A stretch of 64,000 nt of DNA from contig JAUXXD010000201.1 in assembly GCA_030681265.1 (NCBI GenBank), positions 7,870 through 71,869 of the forward strand. The letters are read 5' to 3'. The translations under genes and the position numbers were made by a program. Under the pieces are notes generated by a model. It searched no databases. It had not been told where the DNA came from and saw nothing but the letters and a program-made list of their open reading frames with translations. Shown here in pieces: positions 20,825 through 63,974 of the stretch. Origin of the DNA: Candidatus Didemnitutus sp. Lineage in GTDB: Bacteria; Verrucomicrobiota; Verrucomicrobiia; Opitutales; Opitutaceae. Position 1 is the first letter of the stretch; every line of letters starts with the position of its first letter.

Positions 20825-21179
20825 GCAGAATTGCCATGCGGGAATTCTGCAAAATTAGACAGGCGCCTTCCCACTACTCAGCAAATTGCGCCCAGCAATG
20901 CCTCTGTGCATGTCGCCATCAATCGCGTATAATGTGTGCGTTGCGACACGGCATGTCCGGAGAATGCCGGCGTGTCGCGGTATCGAAGGAATCTCCATTG
21001 GCAAAGTTCACACTTACACGCGATCTACTGCGTAGCGATTTAGTGATCGTCCTCAGATTAAAACACACACGCCATTGACATTTTCCGGAATTCATCATTC
21101 TGGGCGTAGGTTGCGCATTCACACGCAATGTCATTTAGCGACGCACAAGGGCCATGTGCCTCGCTCATCAATAAATATT

Positions 21180-24100
21180 ATGCACTATCGATCTCTGGCC
21201 CGCCTGATTCGCGGTTTCGCGCTAATGCTCTTGCTCATTGGGCTGACTGGACGCGCATTCGCGCTGCCCCCTGGCTCGCAGTTGGATCCTCAAGATTTAG
21301 GTGGTGGCAATGGCGTGCCGTGGAGCACCGCGAATTTTATCACGACCGGCAGCGGCTACGATCTGCGTAGCGGCCGCGTGGTGAGAACGGTGAAGGACTT
21401 TGCGGTGGCGGGGAGCGTGGGAGGTGTGCCCTTGGAGCAAACGCGCGTGGCCTACACCCAGGCTGTCAGTGTTATTGGAGGCGTCCTCGGCGAGACTCGA
21501 TGGGTGATGAACGCCTACGATTACCAAGTGCTGCAACCCACGAGTCTGATATACCCCTCCGGCTCCAATGTGCAGTTCGCCGTTGCGAGCACCGATGGTG
21601 TCACGACTTGGCGGCAGCGGAATTACGGGCATGATCGTGTGAAACTCAATCCCGATAATACCATCGCGCAATTATGGCTGGGCGACGGCTCCTCCGTCGA
21701 GTTCTCCGCCAGCCGCGCCGTGAGGATCAAGGACCGGCATGGACTCGCCCTTACCCTTACCTACGGTGCGGACGGGCTTGCGCAGGTCTCCGATGCCGCT
21801 GGCCGGAGCATCACCTACACTTACTACACTGTGCCAGGGACAACGACCCGGCGACTCAGGCGAGCCACCGGCAGCGACGGTCAATGGGCGGAATACAGCT
21901 GGTCAGACGGCGCGCGCCTGATTGGCGTGACTTACAGTGACGGCACCTCGGCGTCGTATTCCTATACGGTTGCTTCGGGTGCCCAAGTCCTGCCCAGCGT
22001 GCTGCAAGATACTCGTGCGTCGGCCAAGATGCAGGCAGTGAAATACGCTTTCATGGGTCGAGCGGCCGGCAACCCCGAATCCCATACCGCGCTAGCCGTG
22101 CTCTCAGAGTCCGACCCGGGCACGAACACGCTTGTTACTCTCCGTGACCCCGATGCCTTTCAGCCGCGCAACTCGTCGACCATTGCTCCATTTTCGGAGA
22201 CTCGCGGAGATGGCGGTTATCGCGAGGTGCATTTTAAATACGAGCAGGTGGTCAAGGTCATCGGCTTTGCTGGTGACGTGACCAATATCATCTACGAGGG
22301 GCAAAACGGTCAGAACAACTGTGTCAAATCCGTGAGCGACGGATTGGGGCGCGTGACACAGTATGTAAACGAACCCGTCACTGGGCGTGTGTCGAAAATC
22401 ACGTATCCGGATGGCAACTACCGCGAGTTCACGTTCAGCAATGCGGCGCATCCCTACTTCGTCACCACCTCGCGGGATGAGCTGGGCCGCATCACGAACT
22501 ACACGCGCTATGCGAATGGGGCGTTGCAGCGTATCGACTACCCCGACGGCAGCCACGAGTCTTGGCCGACGCTTAATTCCTACAACCAACCGACATCGCA
22601 CCGCTTGCGCAATGGCGCGACCGAATGGTGGGAATTCGATTCGGCCGGCCGCTTGCTGAAACACTACTTGCCAAGCCATACCACGCAGCAGGATTACGTT
22701 GAATACACCTACTACCCTGACACCCATGTCTGGAAGGACCGAGTCAAGACCGTCCGCGATCCGCGCGGCAACGTCACCACCTACGAATACGACTTGGCAT
22801 TTGTGAATGATATCCAAGGCACCACGCCGTGCGCCGGCCGTGGGCTCGTAACGAGGATCATCAACCCCGACAACACGGAGCTCACCTTCGGCTACGATAA
22901 GTTTGGCAACAAAATTTGGGAGGAAAACGAGCTTCGTGAGCGCACCAGCTACACTTTCGACGGCTACCAACGTTTGCTGACGACAACCAACGCACTCAAC
23001 GAAACCACCACGCTCAATTACACGCACTATCGCGCTGCGGATGGGATGGCATTTGTTGGGACGAGGCACACCTCGGAACGTCCCGGCTCGGTCACGAGCC
23101 CTTCAGGTCGCGTCGACCGGTTTTACTATCTCGAGGATTACAAGCCGCTCAAGACGGTCACAGGCTACGGCACTGCGGATGCCTCTACCGTCGCCTTCGA
23201 ATACGACTCCGTCGGCAATCTTGCGAAACTAAGCCAGCAAGTTGATTTAACCCTCTGGCGCGTGACCACCTACGGCTACGACACGCGCAATCGCAAACGC
23301 TTCGAATATGCCCCGCTCAACCGCACCACCGAGTGGCAATACGACGCTGTCGGCAACGTGCGATTTGTCATCAACCCCGACGCCACCTCGACGGAGAAGA
23401 CCTACAACGCGATGAATCAGGTCGCGACCTCGGTTGACGAGATGGGCGACACCACCAGCTTTACCTACAACAGCGCCGGCCTCGTCCACCAGCTCATCGA
23501 TCCGCGCGGCAAAATCTACACCAACACCTACGCCGCCGCCGGCCGCCTGACTAAGCGGCAATACCCCGACGCGACGGAGGAAAACTGGGACTACGACGCC
23601 GCGGGCAATGTCGACGCCTACTACAACCGCTCGAACCAGAAACAGAGCTACGCCTACAACACCCGCAATCGCGAGACGGCCCGCTCCTGGCAGGGCGACG
23701 TGGCGCCGACCGTTAGCACGGCGTATTACGCCAACGGCCTCGTGTGGACGCGCGGCAACGGCGTCAGCACGACCACCAACACCTATTACGCCACCGGCGC
23801 TCTGCACACGCAGCAGCAGGCCATCGCCAGCGGCCCGTCCGTCACGCTGACTTTCAGCTACGATGCCGATGGCCGCCGCCAGACCTTCAACGGCGGCACC
23901 GGCCGCGACCACGGCTACACCTACAACGCGCGCGGCGGCTTGCACAACGTGAAGAACGGCGGGCTGAGCGGCACCGACCTCGCCACCTACACCTACAACC
24001 TCGCCGAGCAGCGCGCCACGCGCACCTCTGGCAACGGCATTGTCGCCACCTATGCCTACGACGCCGCCGGCCGCCTCAATTACCTCAACGCCGCCAGCGT

Positions 24101-25514
24101 GCTGCGCCTCGACTTCGGGCACGACGTGCGCGACCGCCGCACGTGGACTCTCCGCGACCAGAACCTCGGCGACACGTATGAGTATTTCAACGACAGCGAA
24201 CTCTACCGCTACCGCCACGGCGTTACGCGTCCGGACCAGAACTTCAACAACCCGGCCCAGCGCACCGACTCGTTCGACTACGACCCCTCGGGCAACCGCC
24301 TCCAATTCAGCCGCGGCGGCGCGGTGACTAGCTATACCGCCGGTGATGACAACCGCTACACCGCCGTCAGCGGCAATACGATCGCCCACGACGCACGCGG
24401 CAACGTCACCACGTGGGACGGCAAGACCTTCGGCTACGACGCCGACAACCGCCTCATCTCCGCCACCGCCACCGGCCTGACGATGACCTTCGCCTACGAC
24501 AGCGCCGGCCGGCTCGTGAAGCTCGTGAAAAACGGCGTTACCGAATACCGCTTCTACGATGGCGCGCAGTGCTTCCTCCGCACTGACGGCAACGGCACTG
24601 CCATCGACTGGACCGTCTGGGGCCCGACGCCCGACGAAGTCATCGCCCGCCAAGTGAGCGGCGCCTGGCAATTCTACCATCAGGACCAGATCAACAGCGT
24701 CTACGCCGTCACCAACGCCGCCGGCAGCGTCCTCGAGCGCTACCTCTACGACCCCTTCGGCCTGCCCGACGTCCGCGATGCGAACTGGGGCTCCCTCGGA
24801 ACCTACACCGTGATCGGGAATCCGTGGCTCTTCACCGGCCAGGAGTGGCGCGGCGATCTAAGTCTCTCCAACTACAAGGCTCGTTGGTATCAGCCGACGC
24901 TCGGCCGCTTCCTGCAGAACGATCCGGTGAGGTTCGATGCAGGGGACGTTAATCTCTATCGCTATTGTGGGAACGATCCAATGAACCGGTCTGATCCTCT
25001 CGGATTGGCTGACGTGATCCTTGTATTACAGCAAGATCGTGCGTTCTCAGCGGCCGAAAGTGTTCCGGCTGGGGGTGATATCTTTACGGTAGCTGTTCAC
25101 GGAATGGCGGACGGAGGCTTCGCAGCTGACAGACAGGGCGAGAACACCCTATCCACCCGGCAAGTCACGCGCAGCATCGAAAAAGGAGGGCACGAAGAAG
25201 GAAAACCGATCCAGATGATTATGTGTCATGCTGGTGCAAAGCCCAATCTACGCGCCATGAAAAGTATCGCCAAGAGCAGAAAATCTCCTGTAATTGCCGC
25301 AACAAAGGCAGTTGGGGTGAGGAACAAAGAGTCAGATGGCGCGTTCGTCGACGTTGTTACCGGAACATTCGATAAGGACGGTAACATAACGGAAAAGGGT
25401 GAATGGATTCAAGTTAACCCTGATGGATCGGTTACGCAAGTTACCGTGAGCGGCGCGCTTGGCGAGAAGGTCAAACTCCCGAAAGACCCACCGAAGCCTG
25501 AGGAAAAGAAATGA
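21180..25514 (+). CDS. Rhs/YD-repeat polymorphic toxin with N-terminal signal peptide and putative His/Cys protease C-terminal domain
   Basis: Likely start MHYRSLARLIRGFALMLLLIGLTGRAFA; YD repeats; core end GRFLQNDPVRFDAGDVNLYRYCGNDPMNRSDPLGL (ends at 25007); tip with FTVAVHG and IQMIMCHAG. Confidence 0.9.
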   Translation: MHYRSLARLIRGFALMLLLIGLTGRAFALPPGSQLDPQDLGGGNGVPWSTANFITTGSGYDLRSGRVVRTVKDFAVAGSVGGVPLEQTRVAYTQAVSVIGGVLGETRWVMNAYDYQVLQPTSLIYPSGSNVQFAVASTDGVTTWRQRNYGHDRVKLNPDNTIAQLWLGDGSSVEFSASRAVRIKDRHGLALTLTYGADGLAQVSDAAGRSITYTYYTVPGTTTRRLRRATGSDGQWAEYSWSDGARLIGVTYSDGTSASYSYTVASGAQVLPSVLQDTRASAKMQAVKYAFMGRAAGNPESHTALAVLSESDPGTNTLVTLRDPDAFQPRNSSTIAPFSETRGDGGYREVHFKYEQVVKVIGFAGDVTNIIYEGQNGQNNCVKSVSDGLGRVTQYVNEPVTGRVSKITYPDGNYREFTFSNAAHPYFVTTSRDELGRITNYTRYANGALQRIDYPDGSHESWPTLNSYNQPTSHRLRNGATEWWEFDSAGRLLKHYLPSHTTQQDYVEYTYYPDTHVWKDRVKTVRDPRGNVTTYEYDLAFVNDIQGTTPCAGRGLVTRIINPDNTELTFGYDKFGNKIWEENELRERTSYTFDGYQRLLTTTNALNETTTLNYTHYRAADGMAFVGTRHTSERPGSVTSPSGRVDRFYYLEDYKPLKTVTGYGTADASTVAFEYDSVGNLAKLSQQVDLTLWRVTTYGYDTRNRKRFEYAPLNRTTEWQYDAVGNVRFVINPDATSTEKTYNAMNQVATSVDEMGDTTSFTYNSAGLVHQLIDPRGKIYTNTYAAAGRLTKRQYPDATEENWDYDAAGNVDAYYNRSNQKQSYAYNTRNRETARSWQGDVAPTVSTAYYANGLVWTRGNGVSTTTNTYYATGALHTQQQAIASGPSVTLTFSYDADGRRQTFNGGTGRDHGYTYNARGGLHNVKNGGLSGTDLATYTYNLAEQRATRTSGNGIVATYAYDAAGRLNYLNAASVLRLDFGHDVRDRRTWTLRDQNLGDTYEYFNDSELYRYRHGVTRPDQNFNNPAQRTDSFDYDPSGNRLQFSRGGAVTSYTAGDDNRYTAVSGNTIAHDARGNVTTWDGKTFGYDADNRLISATATGLTMTFAYDSAGRLVKLVKNGVTEYRFYDGAQCFLRTDGNGTAIDWTVWGPTPDEVIARQVSGAWQFYHQDQINSVYAVTNAAGSVLERYLYDPFGLPDVRDANWGSLGTYTVIGNPWLFTGQEWRGDLSLSNYKARWYQPTLGRFLQNDPVRFDAGDVNLYRYCGNDPMNRSDPLGLADVILVLQQDRAFSAAESVPAGGDIFTVAVHGMADGGFAADRQGENTLSTRQVTRSIEKGGHEEGKPIQMIMCHAGAKPNLRAMKSIAKSRKSPVIAATKAVGVRNKESDGAFVDVVTGTFDKDGNITEKGEWIQVNPDGSVTQVTVSGALGEKVKLPKDPPKPEEKK

Positions 25515-25915
25515 AACATGTCGTCATAACGTTAGTAACAGCAATCTCCATGTTGGGTTGCGCTACTAGGCCGAAGGATAGTTCATTAGGATCAAAATCC
25601 ATTACGGTGCATTTAGGAGAACATGCGGTGATGGACGAAACGAGTTTGAAAAAAATGAGCGAACTGGCGCATGGGGGAGACGGTCCCGCAGCCTATGCGG
25701 TCGCGATGCATTACGCTATCGGTATAGGGGATCCTGAGAAAGCGTCCTACTACCGCAAGTTAGCGATCACCGCCGAGTATCCGCCAGCTGTTTATGCTGA
25801 AGCTATTCGCGCATGGGATATCGACGGTGATGCGGTGAGGGCTCGAAGTTTGCTAAAGCGGGCCTTAGAACTCGGGCACCCGGATACGGCGAACCTTGAT
25901 AAGGAGATTCCCTAA
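25511..25915 (+). CDS. Putative immunity lipoprotein with Sel1-like repeats
   Basis: ATGA overlap with the Rhs stop; MKHVVITLVTAISMLGC lipobox-like; GDGPAAYAVAMHYAIG..DPEKA; lower GC, like the toxin tip. Confidence 0.7.
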   Translation: MKHVVITLVTAISMLGCATRPKDSSLGSKSITVHLGEHAVMDETSLKKMSELAHGGDGPAAYAVAMHYAIGIGDPEKASYYRKLAITAEYPPAVYAEAIRAWDIDGDAVRARSLLKRALELGHPDTANLDKEIP

Positions 25916-26000
25916 AAGAAATCGCGGGCGGTCCGGGACAATCCGCCCGCTCGCGCAGCGACTTGGTATGAACCGTCAGGGAGCCACTGCTGTCCAGGTC

Positions 26001-26304
26001 AGCCAAATAAGGGGTCATTCCTTGAATCTTGACAAAAATGGTGACGGGCGCTGACTCACGCATATGGCACGAGCACTGCGATTGGAATTCGAGGGGGCGT
26101 GTTATCACGTGATCAACCGCGGGAATTACCGGCGGAATCTGTTCGAGCCGAAAGGGGCGGCGAAGGCGTTTGAGGACTGCTTGTTCGAGGTGTGTGCGAA
26201 GTGCGGCTGGCGGCTGCATGCCTATGTGATCATGCGCAACCACTTCCATCTGGCCTTGGAAACTCCCGAACCGAACCTCAGCGTAGGCATGAAGTGGCTG
26301 CAAG
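26001..26304 (+). pseudogene. Truncated 5' copy of the Y1/RAYT-like transposase element
   Basis: 304-bp direct repeat of the segment starting at 26305, with about 6 differences; ORF 26064 breaks after MKWLQ. Confidence 0.85.
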
Positions 26305-26312
26305 AGCCAAAT

Positions 26313-27360
26313 AAGGGGTCATTCCTTGAATCTTGACAAAAAGGGTGACGGGCGCTGACTCACGCATATGGCACGAGCACTGCGTTTGGAATTCGAGGGG
26401 GCGTGTTACCACGTGATCAACCGCGGGAATTACCGGCGGAATCTGTTCGAGCCGAAAGGGGCGGCGAAGGCGTTTGAGGACTGCTTGTTCGCGGTGTGTG
26501 CGAAGTGCGGCTGGCGGCTGCATGCCTATGTGATCATGCGCAACCACTTCCATCTGGCCTTGGAAACTCCCGAACCGAACCTCAGCATAGGCATGAAGTG
26601 GCTGCAGGGCACTTGGGCGGCGCGATTCAACCGGTTCCGCGGCCAAGTGGGGCGTCCATTTCAGGGGCGCTTCAAGGCGTTGCACGTCGAGCCCGGCCAC
26701 GCGCTCGCGCAGGTTGCCCACTATATCCATTTGAATCCCGTGCGCGCCAAGGTGGTGTCACCAGATCGGTTGGCCGAGTTTGAATGGAGCAGTTTGCGCT
26801 GGTTTGCGCGCAAAGACCGGCTGGCGTTCCTCGCGGCGGAAACGATCATGGGCGAGAGCGGCGGGTTGCCCGATACGGCCGCGGGCTGGAGGCGGTATCA
26901 CGCGTATTTGGCCCTGCTAGCAGAAGAGGCACCGGCCAAACGGGAAGAGCGTTTTGCGCGGCTCAGCCGGGGTTGGGTGGTGGGGTCGCCTGAGTTTAAG
27001 AAAGAGTTGCGCAAAGAGCTTCGGCAAAAGGGCGCGCTGCTGGACCGTGCGTCGCTGTCCGGCACGGACGCCGTGGCGGCGCTGCGCGAGGAGGAGTGGG
27101 AGGAGCAATTAACGAAGGCGGCGAAGGCCCTGCGGATCAATCTGGATAAACTAGGGCCGCGCAAGTCGGCCGCCGAGAAAGTGAAATTGGCCGCGGCGAT
27201 GAGGGCCGTGACGACGGCGTCGAACGGCTGGCTCGCGACGCGCTTGGCCATGGGACAGCCAGCGAGTGTGAGTCAGTTCACGCGCCGCTTCCGGCTCGAC
27301 GGCGGCCAGGATGCGCGCGATTTTCAGGCCGCTTTGTCAAGAATCAAGGAATGACCCCTT
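26313..27360 (+). mobile_element. Y1 (IS200-like/RAYT) transposase element with 26-bp terminal inverted repeats
   Basis: Left AAGGGGTCATTCCTTGAATCTTGACA (26313-26338); right TGTCAAGAATCAAGGAATGACCCCTT (27335-27360); 1 mismatch. Confidence 0.75.
26368..27354 (+). CDS. Y1/HUH transposase (RAYT-like) with C-terminal extension
   Basis: YHVINRGN, HAYVIMRNHFHL (HUH), YIHLNPVRA (catalytic Tyr). Confidence 0.88.
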   Translation: MARALRLEFEGACYHVINRGNYRRNLFEPKGAAKAFEDCLFAVCAKCGWRLHAYVIMRNHFHLALETPEPNLSIGMKWLQGTWAARFNRFRGQVGRPFQGRFKALHVEPGHALAQVAHYIHLNPVRAKVVSPDRLAEFEWSSLRWFARKDRLAFLAAETIMGESGGLPDTAAGWRRYHAYLALLAEEAPAKREERFARLSRGWVVGSPEFKKELRKELRQKGALLDRASLSGTDAVAALREEEWEEQLTKAAKALRINLDKLGPRKSAAEKVKLAAAMRAVTTASNGWLATRLAMGQPASVSQFTRRFRLDGGQDARDFQAALSRIKE

Positions 27361-27633
27361 TTCGCAGTTCCGCCACCCGGCCCAATCGCTTCCTCTACGT
27401 CCATACACCCAAGCATGGCTCTTGGCTCAATCTGGTCGAAACGCTCTTCGGGAAAATGGCGCGCACCTTCTTGCGTGGCATCCGGGTTCAAAGCTGGCAG
27501 GAATTGCGCGCCCGCATCCTGCAGGGCATTGCCGAAATTAATGCCGCCCCCGTCGTCCACCGCTGGCGCAACTTCACCGCCTTGGATAAACCGGCTGCTT
27601 AAGTGTTCACCTTTCATTCAAACGTTATACTAG
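27361..27633 (+). pseudogene. IS630-family transposase C-terminal fragment with probable element end
   Basis: HTPKHGSWLNLVETLFGKMARTFLRG is a typical IS630 DDE C-terminus; sequence ends ...GTTATACTAG. Confidence 0.8.
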
Positions 27634-62983: not shown

Positions 62984-63523
62984 ATGAGGTTCGCCGGTCA
63001 CACGACGATTTCGGCGCTTGGTTCATCTCGCGCCATGCTCGCCACCCGCGCGGGATTTACGTTGGTGGAAGTGTTGCTCGTGCTGGCACTGCTCGCGTTG
63101 TTGGCGGCGGTTTTTATTCCGGGAGTGAATTCCATTTTGCGCGACATCAACGCGCGCGGACCTGACCAATTGCTCAGCGAAGCCATGCTCGCCGCTCGGC
63201 ACGAGGCGCTGGCCACCGGCCGCGTCGTCGAGTTGCGCTACCACACCGAGGCGCGGCAACTCTGGTGGAGTGAAACCGCGCCGCGCGCGGAGCCGCTACC
63301 TGCGGGGATGGAAGTCTCGTTTCTCCCACTCGCGTCAGGTTCCAGTATTTTGCTCGGCGGTCAGCTCGCCGAAGCGCAAGAGCCGTTGCGCCGCGTGCGG
63401 TTTTTCCCCGACGGCACGTGCGATGCGTTTCGCGTCAGTCTCAAAGCGGCTAACGCCGCGCCGCGGCTCTTCGTGGTTGATCCCTGGACCTGCGCCCTGA
63501 GTCCGCTGCCGACCACCCGTTAA
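62984..63523 (+). CDS. Minor pseudopilin, GspH-like
   Basis: GFTLVEVLLVL; FFPDG motif; an alternative later start is possible. Confidence 0.75.
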   Translation: MRFAGHTTISALGSSRAMLATRAGFTLVEVLLVLALLALLAAVFIPGVNSILRDINARGPDQLLSEAMLAARHEALATGRVVELRYHTEARQLWWSETAPRAEPLPAGMEVSFLPLASGSSILLGGQLAEAQEPLRRVRFFPDGTCDAFRVSLKAANAAPRLFVVDPWTCALSPLPTTR

Positions 63524-63524
63524 C

Positions 63525-63974
63525 ATGCGCGCACGTTCCTCCGCTTTCACGTTGCTTGAGGTGCTGATTGGCATCGCCGTGCTCGGCATTGCCGCCGTCG
63601 TGCTCGGCGCGGCCTACGTCAACACACTCAGTGCGCACGCCGCGGTCGCGCAGCGCGCCACGGATGGTTCGCTCTTGGATCATTTGAGCGAAGTGGTGCT
63701 CAACGAACCCGACCGCGCCAAGGTCGAAGCGGGCGGCGATATTCCGTTGCCCGACAATCGCCGTCTGCGCTGGCAGGCGACGATCGAGGAAGCACCGGTG
63801 CCGGACTTGTTTCGCGTGGTCGTAAAAGGCGAAGTGCGCGGCGACGCGACGAAAGCGACCGAAGAATTCACGCAGACACTGATGCTGTTGCGACCCACGT
63901 GGTCCGATCCGCAGCGCCGTGAACAATTGAGCACCGACTGGCGCGAGAGTCAGGCGAAGGGGACACCGCGATGA
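63525..63974 (+). CDS. Minor pseudopilin, GspI-like
   Basis: AFTLLEVLIGIAVL. Confidence 0.75.
   Translation: MRARSSAFTLLEVLIGIAVLGIAAVVLGAAYVNTLSAHAAVAQRATDGSLLDHLSEVVLNEPDRAKVEAGGDIPLPDNRRLRWQATIEEAPVPDLFRVVVKGEVRGDATKATEEFTQTLMLLRPTWSDPQRREQLSTDWRESQAKGTPR

Follow-up and report, generated by a model that had tools for sequence, protein, structure and literature searches.

At about 21-26 kb in a 64,000-nucleotide stretch of the genome of Candidatus Didemnitutus sp., a soil or water bacterium of the Opitutaceae (Verrucomicrobiota; contig JAUXXD010000201.1), lie two overlapping genes that encode an Rhs polymorphic toxin with a predicted signal peptide, P0001, and a small predicted lipoprotein, P0002. 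The whole stretch is referred to here as the window, and the features are collected in Table 1. The reading frame of P0001 spans 21075-25514 on the forward strand, and its in-frame ATG at 21180 gives a protein of 1444 amino acids (aa). P0001 has the attributes of an Rhs/YD-repeat polymorphic toxin: the repeats, the associated core with its DPxGL motif, a divergent C-terminal tip, an adjacent partner gene and orphan cassettes. Comparison with related loci suggests that P0001 and P0002 are a real toxin-immunity pair, with toxin and immunity subfamilies that appear to be new and unclassified, and that the tip is best read as a cysteine peptidase-like domain of clan CD.

Table 1 Features of the P0001-P0002 locus and of the distal part of the window (positions are those of the window)
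Feature	Position	Strand	Basis or remark
Rhs polymorphic toxin gene P0001 (1444 aa)	21180..25514, stop codon included	+	Open reading frame translation; Pfam and NCBIfam matches
Predicted Sec (signal peptidase I) signal peptide, aa 1-28	21180..21263	+	By-eye reading and hydropathy; cleavage after AFA
N-terminal region of unknown type and YD/RHS-repeat shell, aa 29-1189	21264..24746	+	RHS_repeat and RHS_core matches
Rhs-associated core, aa 1190-1276, ending DPLGL	24747..25007	+	TIGR03696; expected autoproteolytic release site
Toxin tip, aa 1277-1444 (168 aa)	25008..25511	+	Predicted clan CD-like cysteine peptidase domain
His1307 codon (HG motif), predicted catalytic His	25098..25100	+	Invariant in 22/22; preceded by strand E27-30
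Cys1349 codon, predicted nucleophile	25224..25226	+	Invariant in 22/22; preceded by strand E69-72
Predicted cognate immunity gene P0002 (134-aa Sel1-like-repeat lipoprotein)	25511..25915	+	ATGA overlap, synteny, Sel1 profile matches
Two pseudopilin genes with N_methyl motif, one with a GspH domain	62984-63974		Contig edge

The N terminus of P0001, MHYRSLARLIRGFALMLLLIGLTGRAFA followed after the predicted cleavage site by LPPG, reads by eye as a classical Sec signal, with a basic n-region containing three arginines, a hydrophobic core 13 residues long (Kyte-Doolittle maximum 2.65 over 11 residues) and an A-F-A (AxA) cleavage motif. Repeat models match the protein: Pfam RHS_repeat (PF05593; 3e-33) matches in eight stretches and NCBIfam RHS_core in six (best at aa 554-842), and YD_repeat_2x and TIGR01643 (2.1e-18) are also matched. 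RHS repeats alone were matched in the Pfam scan, which returned no PAAR, VgrG, SpvB or other delivery domain on the protein. The Rhs_assc_core model TIGR03696 matches over its full length (4e-19; 68.9 bits, with the cut-off at 32.5; model positions 1-76/76) and stops exactly at the sequence SDPLGL, leaving the 168-residue tip. Compared with L007, an orphan cassette from a close relative, the core shows 88% identity and the tip 51%, and the G+C content is 0.53 across the tip and immunity gene versus 0.66 in the Rhs core, a contrast that is the usual signature of a swappable warhead. The public gene calls for both proteins are shorter: that for the Rhs protein (P0003, 1429 aa) starts within the signal peptide and that for the partner (P0025, 94 aa) lacks the lipobox and the conserved H34 and G36. 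Because these calls start downstream, automatic annotation would miss the export of both proteins.

Residues H32 and C74 of the tip (His1307 and Cys1349), 42 residues apart, are the sole invariant columns in an alignment of 22 family sequences (A1), and the pair is therefore unlikely to be a product of chance. G33, G37, G66, I69, N81 and G141 are near-invariant in the same alignment, which holds no conserved basic pocket or other specificity feature beyond D11, T28, N81 and T100, and no column with at least 80% Lys or Arg, a sequence proxy for a pocket for inositol hexakisphosphate (InsP6). The original prediction, made from the letters of the DNA alone, had described a Sec-type N terminus without a PAAR or VgrG-related region, a 168-residue tip after DPLGL, an HG histidine and a cysteine at these positions and spacing, and a next gene with a 4-nucleotide overlap and a lipobox. 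Translation and the profile matches bear out each of these points, and the two residues that it singled out proved to be the only invariant pair of the family.

The tip family is rare. An exhaustive phmmer search over 1.84 billion representative proteins returned 21 matches, 11 of them below 1e-10, a word-indexed search that compared the tip region with Rhs-length proteins recovered only P0001, and the tip was present in 2 of 401 sampled genomes of Verrucomicrobiota. Most of the 21 matches are Rhs-type C-terminal fragments in which the domain begins directly after DPxGL, and one is a 2875-aa SpvB/FG-GAP/RHS protein. In three giant relatives of actinobacterial type (P0007, P0023 and P0024) the domain is internal and present in up to five copies; those of P0007 (3184 aa) alternate with PI3/PI4-kinase-like domains of the SCO1664 family, and P0023 carries a Scabin-like ADP-ribosyltransferase in addition to its copies. 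Eight relatives (P0012-P0017, P0020 and P0021) extend beyond the domain in an Ala/Lys/Gln-rich tail of 100-150 aa, which in about half of them (P0012, P0013, P0016 and P0017) ends in a short (N/R)(P/H/T)PL motif; the P0001 tip has no such tail. A 643-aa non-Rhs protein from a metagenome-assembled genome (MAG) of the Bdellovibrionales (L006:2432-4363) carries the His/Cys domain at its C terminus behind a hydrophobic N terminus that looks signal-peptide-like by eye, and no obvious Sel1-like partner lies beside its gene, among neighbours that were not profile-compared. The presence of the domain in a predator that inhabits the prey periplasm hints at an envelope target.

The partner gene begins within GAGGAAAAGAAATGA, where its ATG overlaps the Rhs stop codon by 4 nucleotides (ATGA) and is served by a GAGGA Shine-Dalgarno motif. 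The N terminus of P0002, MKHVVITLVTAISMLGC, fits the lipoprotein pattern, with the lipobox cysteine, Cys17, encoded at 25559-25561. A word-indexed search with P0002 alone recovered only P0002, and Pfam returned no family for it other than a weak Sel1 match, which all five members of the immunity family share. At the level of the family profile the resemblance is clearer, with matches to solved Sel1-repeat structures (4bwr at 7.4e-5, also 5b26, 6lch and 6onw).

A related-loci search seeded with a 5-sequence tip alignment places the same two genes together elsewhere. An Opitutaceae MAG (L005) encodes a larger Rhs protein bearing the same tip (45% identity). Downstream of it come a 138-aa lipoprotein sharing 42% identity with P0002 (E = 1e-35) and, after that, an orphan Rhs C terminus with a different tip. 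The toxin-then-lipoprotein order recurs in metagenome contigs L008/L010/L011 and L013, as orphan cassettes or Rhs ends, and in L009 the lipoprotein stands alone as the last of a row of small open reading frames downstream of another toxin-like tail, a row that we read as an immunity-gene island. In a distant member of the Verrucomicrobiota (L015) the domain forms a stand-alone secreted protein of 213 aa (1405-2046, reverse strand; hhalign 93%), followed by a 168-aa Sel1-like protein with a signal peptidase I (SPase I) signal (912-1418, reverse strand; hhalign 95%), and the pair thus persists outside Rhs proteins. Altogether a conserved partner follows the toxin domain in four independent loci of Rhs type and one locus of a stand-alone secreted toxin, a recurrence that argues for the proposal that the lipoprotein is the immunity partner. 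All four homologues with a readable N terminus, P0002 included, have a lipobox, and the distant partners (that of L015 and YibG of Escherichia coli) have an SPase I-type signal. The partner thus appears to be extracytoplasmic in every delivery context examined, and on this ground we would place the action of the toxin in the envelope.

Modelled by AlphaFold with the 22-sequence alignment, the tip yields a confident structure (predicted local distance difference test (pLDDT) score 91, predicted TM-score 0.84), whereas the single-sequence model reached a pLDDT of only 42. The fold consists of an α/β core and a β-rich C-terminal part, and the expectation that His and Cys would each follow a strand holds in it: strand E27-30 precedes H32 and strand E69-72 precedes C74, so that a His-Gly comes before the Cys, each after a β-strand, in the manner of clan CD. 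Searched with Foldseek against the PDB, the model is closest to the cysteine protease domain of the Vibrio cholerae RTX toxin (family C80, 3gcd; E = 3.9e-3, probability 0.97, TM-score 0.42), and the next matches include two large clostridial toxins containing a C80 domain, along with several C13 enzymes of legumain type. The top entry in BFVD, a siphovirus 'minor capsid protein' (E = 1.3e-4, probability 1.0, TMq 0.51), is one that we take to be a MuF-type toxin carrier, and giant-virus entries of the clostripain family C11 are also found. Since three clan CD families (C80, C13 and C11) match across two libraries and the order HG then C is that of the clan, a clan CD-type fold is the best reading of the model, from matches that are weak. 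The caspase- or C80-like fold originally proposed for the tip thereby gains some support. Sequence searches of the PDB produced only spurious, repeat-inflated matches between one 17-aa β-hairpin, GEWIQVNPDGSVT, and designed β-trefoils.

The likeness to C80, the InsP6-activated domains of MARTX and large clostridial toxins, lies in the order of the catalytic residues, each after a β-strand, and in the β-rich subdomain that follows the core. The spacing of His and Cys in C80, about 42-49 residues, also suits the tip. The differences are in sequence and setting. The Pfam model Peptidase_C80 gives no match at E ≤ 1, whether to the tip or to the 22 members of its family, and C80 is an internal autoprocessing module of host-directed toxins, whereas the P0001 tip would be a stand-alone warhead with its own immunity protein. 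The family conserves no basic position, which makes an InsP6 pocket unlikely, and we rejected activation by InsP6 on that basis.

A second family, DUF4347 (PF14252), has a layout like that of the tip, with SHG, about 42 residues, YGC and then a (V/I)AA(S/T) strand, and its model matches the tip relative P0007 at 2.8e-15. The model is not matched by the tip itself, and 3 of the 22 relatives match it weakly (best 0.0033). DUF4347 also differs in position: it lies at the N terminus of giant proteins of the surface or RTX-like kind (1000-16000 aa), whereas the P0001 tip is C-terminal. Of the 401 Verrucomicrobiota genomes sampled, 53 contain it, and most of the listed loci (L016-L045) place it in open frames about 1000 to 16000 aa long. 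In a 40-row alignment (39 sampled copies and the seed) the histidine is kept in 28 rows and the cysteine in 31, so that many copies may be inactive. The link between the tip and DUF4347 is suggestive and not significant. The NCBIfam model NF012197 ('lonely Cys') was set aside as too weak a match, at 20 bits against a cut-off of 200 and in 2 of the 22 members.

By description, the tip fits a class that has been catalogued. Tox-Caspase is a caspase-like domain with conserved H and C, found either at the C terminus, as the toxin, or internally, as a releasing peptidase, and it forms arrays in giant toxins of Streptomyces; among its delivery contexts is a 'T2SS/Sec-dependent' class, which combines a signal peptide with RHS repeats (Zhang, de Souza, Anantharaman, Iyer and Aravind 2012, PMC3482391). 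All three contexts (C-terminal toxin, internal arrays and signal-peptide RHS proteins) recur among the relatives of the P0001 tip, a likeness of description. The immunity families assigned to Tox-Caspase, Imm36 and Imm57 (PMC3482391), differ from P0002.

A remote counterpart of the whole pair is present in E. coli K-12, in the orphan cassette downstream of rhsA that comprises the pseudogene yibJ' and yibG. YibJ-type tips share with P0001 the HG-to-C layout, and both open with GL(V/A)D(I/V)NL immediately after DPxGL. Aligned by hhalign with the tip family, the piece of YibJ before its internal stop scores 96.3% (E = 1.6e-9) over a stretch that starts at GLVDINL, includes HG and reaches the Cys, with the His and Cys in register. 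YibJ-type proteins are too distant for phmmer and none was among the 21 tip matches. YibG, like P0002, is an exported Sel1/TPR (tetratricopeptide repeat)-like protein encoded after the tip, and it aligns with the immunity family at 68.6% (E = 4.6e-5); its signal is of SPase I type, whereas P0002 is a predicted lipoprotein. The relationship between the two pairs is one at superfamily level and not of close membership. The E. coli Rhs proteins with YibJ-type tips are presumably of type VI secretion system (T6SS) type and without a signal peptide. No functional study of yibJ or yibG was found in the literature.

The delivery of P0001 appears to follow another course. In its 3.56-Mb, 98.9%-complete genome, searches for TssC, Hcp and PAAR returned nothing, whereas control genomes gave matches, and TssC was likewise not found in the genome of L005. 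With no PAAR on the protein and none of these genes matched in the genome, P0001 does not have the marks of a T6SS-delivered Rhs effector, in line with the T6SS independence first proposed for it. The genome encodes four Rhs cores, and all three of its full-length Rhs proteins start with signal peptides, as does the Rhs protein of L005. WapA-type Rhs/YD toxins of Gram-positive bacteria likewise have an N-terminal signal peptide, an adjacent immunity gene and no T6SS. The host of P0001 differs in having two membranes, and a further step across the outer membrane is therefore required. Given four secretins in the genome and the pseudopilin genes near the end of the window, a type II secretion system (T2SS) is a possible export route. 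Of the suggestion that a T2SS near 62.5 kb serves the toxin, the pseudopilin genes stand, at the contig edge, so that any further part of such a cluster would lie beyond it; nothing ties them to the Rhs protein.

On balance we think it probable that P0001 is a Sec-exported Rhs toxin whose tip acts as a clan CD cysteine peptidase in the envelope of rival bacteria and is held in check by the lipoprotein. In this proposal, Sec would export the Rhs protein across the inner membrane, with the YD-repeat shell enclosing the 168-aa tip, and aspartyl autoproteolysis by the Rhs core would free the tip after DPLGL. The tip itself would be a minimal caspase-hemoglobinase-fold (clan CD, C80-like) cysteine peptidase using His1307 and Cys1349, which, once released, would attack a substrate in the envelope or periplasm of competing bacteria. 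The lipoprotein with Sel1-like repeats, co-translated with the toxin, would sit in the periplasm of the producer and block the enzyme by binding it. We infer four elements of this scheme: the peptidase chemistry of the tip, its periplasmic site of action (from the predicted export of every partner protein), inhibition through binding by the lipoprotein, and the route across the outer membrane of the producer and into the target cell.

Several results weigh against the proposal. No Foldseek match in the PDB reached E ≤ 1e-3, the C80 domain giving the highest TM-score at 0.42; entries for Argonaute and for the nitrilase superfamily lie scattered among the clan CD matches; and the tip matches no Pfam peptidase model. 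Comparison of the tip family with a 40-sequence DUF4347 alignment by hhalign gave only 13% (E = 2e-3), with His aligned to His and Cys to Cys. P0002 on its own scores below the Pfam cut-off for Sel1 (E = 0.18, 12.9 bits against 30.7); the Sel1-like helices predicted for it are borne out at the level of the family profile. No accessory export gene is common to the three Rhs loci of the genome, and no result points to a substrate.

The same fold and the same site of action would also suit a thiol enzyme other than an endopeptidase, one whose transpeptidase, ligase or amidase activity would be directed at peptidoglycan stems or at the links between lipoproteins and peptidoglycan. Such chemistry occurs within the clan in legumain-type ligases and in the glycosylphosphatidylinositol transamidase. 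The fold matches include peptide ligases of legumain type (6l4y and 5h0i), export of the immunity protein suggests a substrate in the envelope for this enzyme too, and the want of any specificity feature beyond the four positions named above also counts for it. Nothing speaks specifically in its favour, however, and the best-scoring matches are hydrolytic autoprocessing domains; we consider it unlikely.

A toxin that acts in the cytoplasm of the target is decidedly improbable. The lipoprotein would then guard only the producer's own periplasm while the Rhs protein is in transit, and since the Rhs protein must pass through that compartment, the producer would require an antidote there whatever the toxin's final site of action. 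Yet YibJ-type tips, on Rhs proteins not known to have a signal peptide, still pair with an exported Sel1 protein; the shell already shields the tip in transit, as is established for Rhs and Tc cages; and the Bdellovibrionales domain lies behind an N terminus that by eye resembles a signal peptide.

A role for the domain solely in self-release or processing, as a peptidase and not a toxin, with the lipoprotein as its helper, is highly improbable. Releasing peptidases make up the majority of the caspase-like domains of polymorphic toxins (PMC3482391), and the internal, repeated copies in P0007, P0023 and P0024 would suit that role, but in P0001 the domain is the most C-terminal one and the only one past the Rhs release site, and toxin and partner recur as orphan cassettes, with the partner alone in the apparent immunity-gene island of L009. 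Equally hard to credit is a wrong fold assignment, with a Rossmann-like or nitrilase-like enzyme in which the His and Cys serve another role such as metal binding: many nitrilase-superfamily and Argonaute entries match with E-values similar to those of clan CD, but the nitrilase-type reading is ruled out because the alignment has no invariant Glu or Lys for the triad, and three clan CD families match across two libraries with the HG-to-C order and spacing of the clan.

Other Rhs loci give further views of the group. In the Opitutaceae MAG, the N-terminal region of the Rhs protein with the same tip (L050:1-1842, reverse strand) has a transglutaminase-like motif, and its start is overlapped by 4 nucleotides by the preceding gene, which encodes a 1952-aa secreted protein with RCC1 repeats (L050:1839-7697, reverse strand). 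The second signal-peptide Rhs protein of the Didemnitutus genome (G000:C45:2839-9072, 2077 aa) ends in a tip with the pattern HTHPY...S..D, which resembles the JAB/MPN metalloprotease motif; no Pfam family matches this tip, and a 141-aa open reading frame follows directly. The third (G000:C115:1684-8028) runs past the contig end, and its tip is related, through the pattern K(A/S)GWTL.QIL, to that of an orphan Rhs C terminus (G000:C88:1-588), with no Pfam match in either.

Housekeeping genes flank the P0001-P0002 locus, with sdhA and sdhB on its upstream side and abgT on its downstream side. Nine nucleotides past the stop codon of P0002, at 25924-25950, lies a GC-rich hairpin, GCGGGCGG, with an 11-nucleotide loop, and CCGCCCGC, not followed by a T-run; next to the Y1 transposase genes, it could be an element like a repetitive extragenic palindrome (REP) or a terminator. 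A truncated IS200-like Y1 transposase copy (26064-26336, 90 aa) directly precedes a full copy (26368-27354, 328 aa; PF01797, 2.1e-10), their N termini nearly identical, and an 83-aa DDE_3 transposase remnant (27351-27602; PF13358, 4e-4) lies between the latter and abgT. The orphan Rhs array of the close relative likewise has an IS200-like transposase gene remnant beside it (L007, 306-884).

The toxin class as such is known: it was catalogued computationally in 2012, and distant relatives are present in E. coli K-12. A search of the literature found no experiments on caspase-fold polymorphic-toxin tips, the E. coli relatives included; the questions that these tips raise are those of their substrate and of the reason for their always exported antidotes. 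The locus described here is an intact and compact example, with a confident model, a defined predicted catalytic pair and a conserved partner, and is suited to comparing toxicity in the periplasm and in the cytoplasm. As every full-length Rhs protein of the genome bears a signal and the genome lacks a T6SS, it also offers a clean case for how Rhs cages cross the outer membrane. In its most far-reaching form, which we regard as improbable, the interpretation would make Sec-exported Rhs cages a contact-dependent or diffusible weapon of T6SS-less Verrucomicrobia, leaving the cell through a T2SS-like or other outer-membrane exit and carrying a cofactor-independent clan CD enzyme that cuts or transamidates an essential envelope component in the periplasm of rivals. 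If true, it would give the antibacterial toxins of caspase fold their first member with a defined periplasmic target, one whose dedicated inhibitors would be Sel1-repeat lipoproteins. Collectively, the locus provides a test case for two questions: which substrates are cut by antibacterial toxins with a caspase fold, and by what means Sec-dependent Rhs toxins operate where the cell has two membranes.

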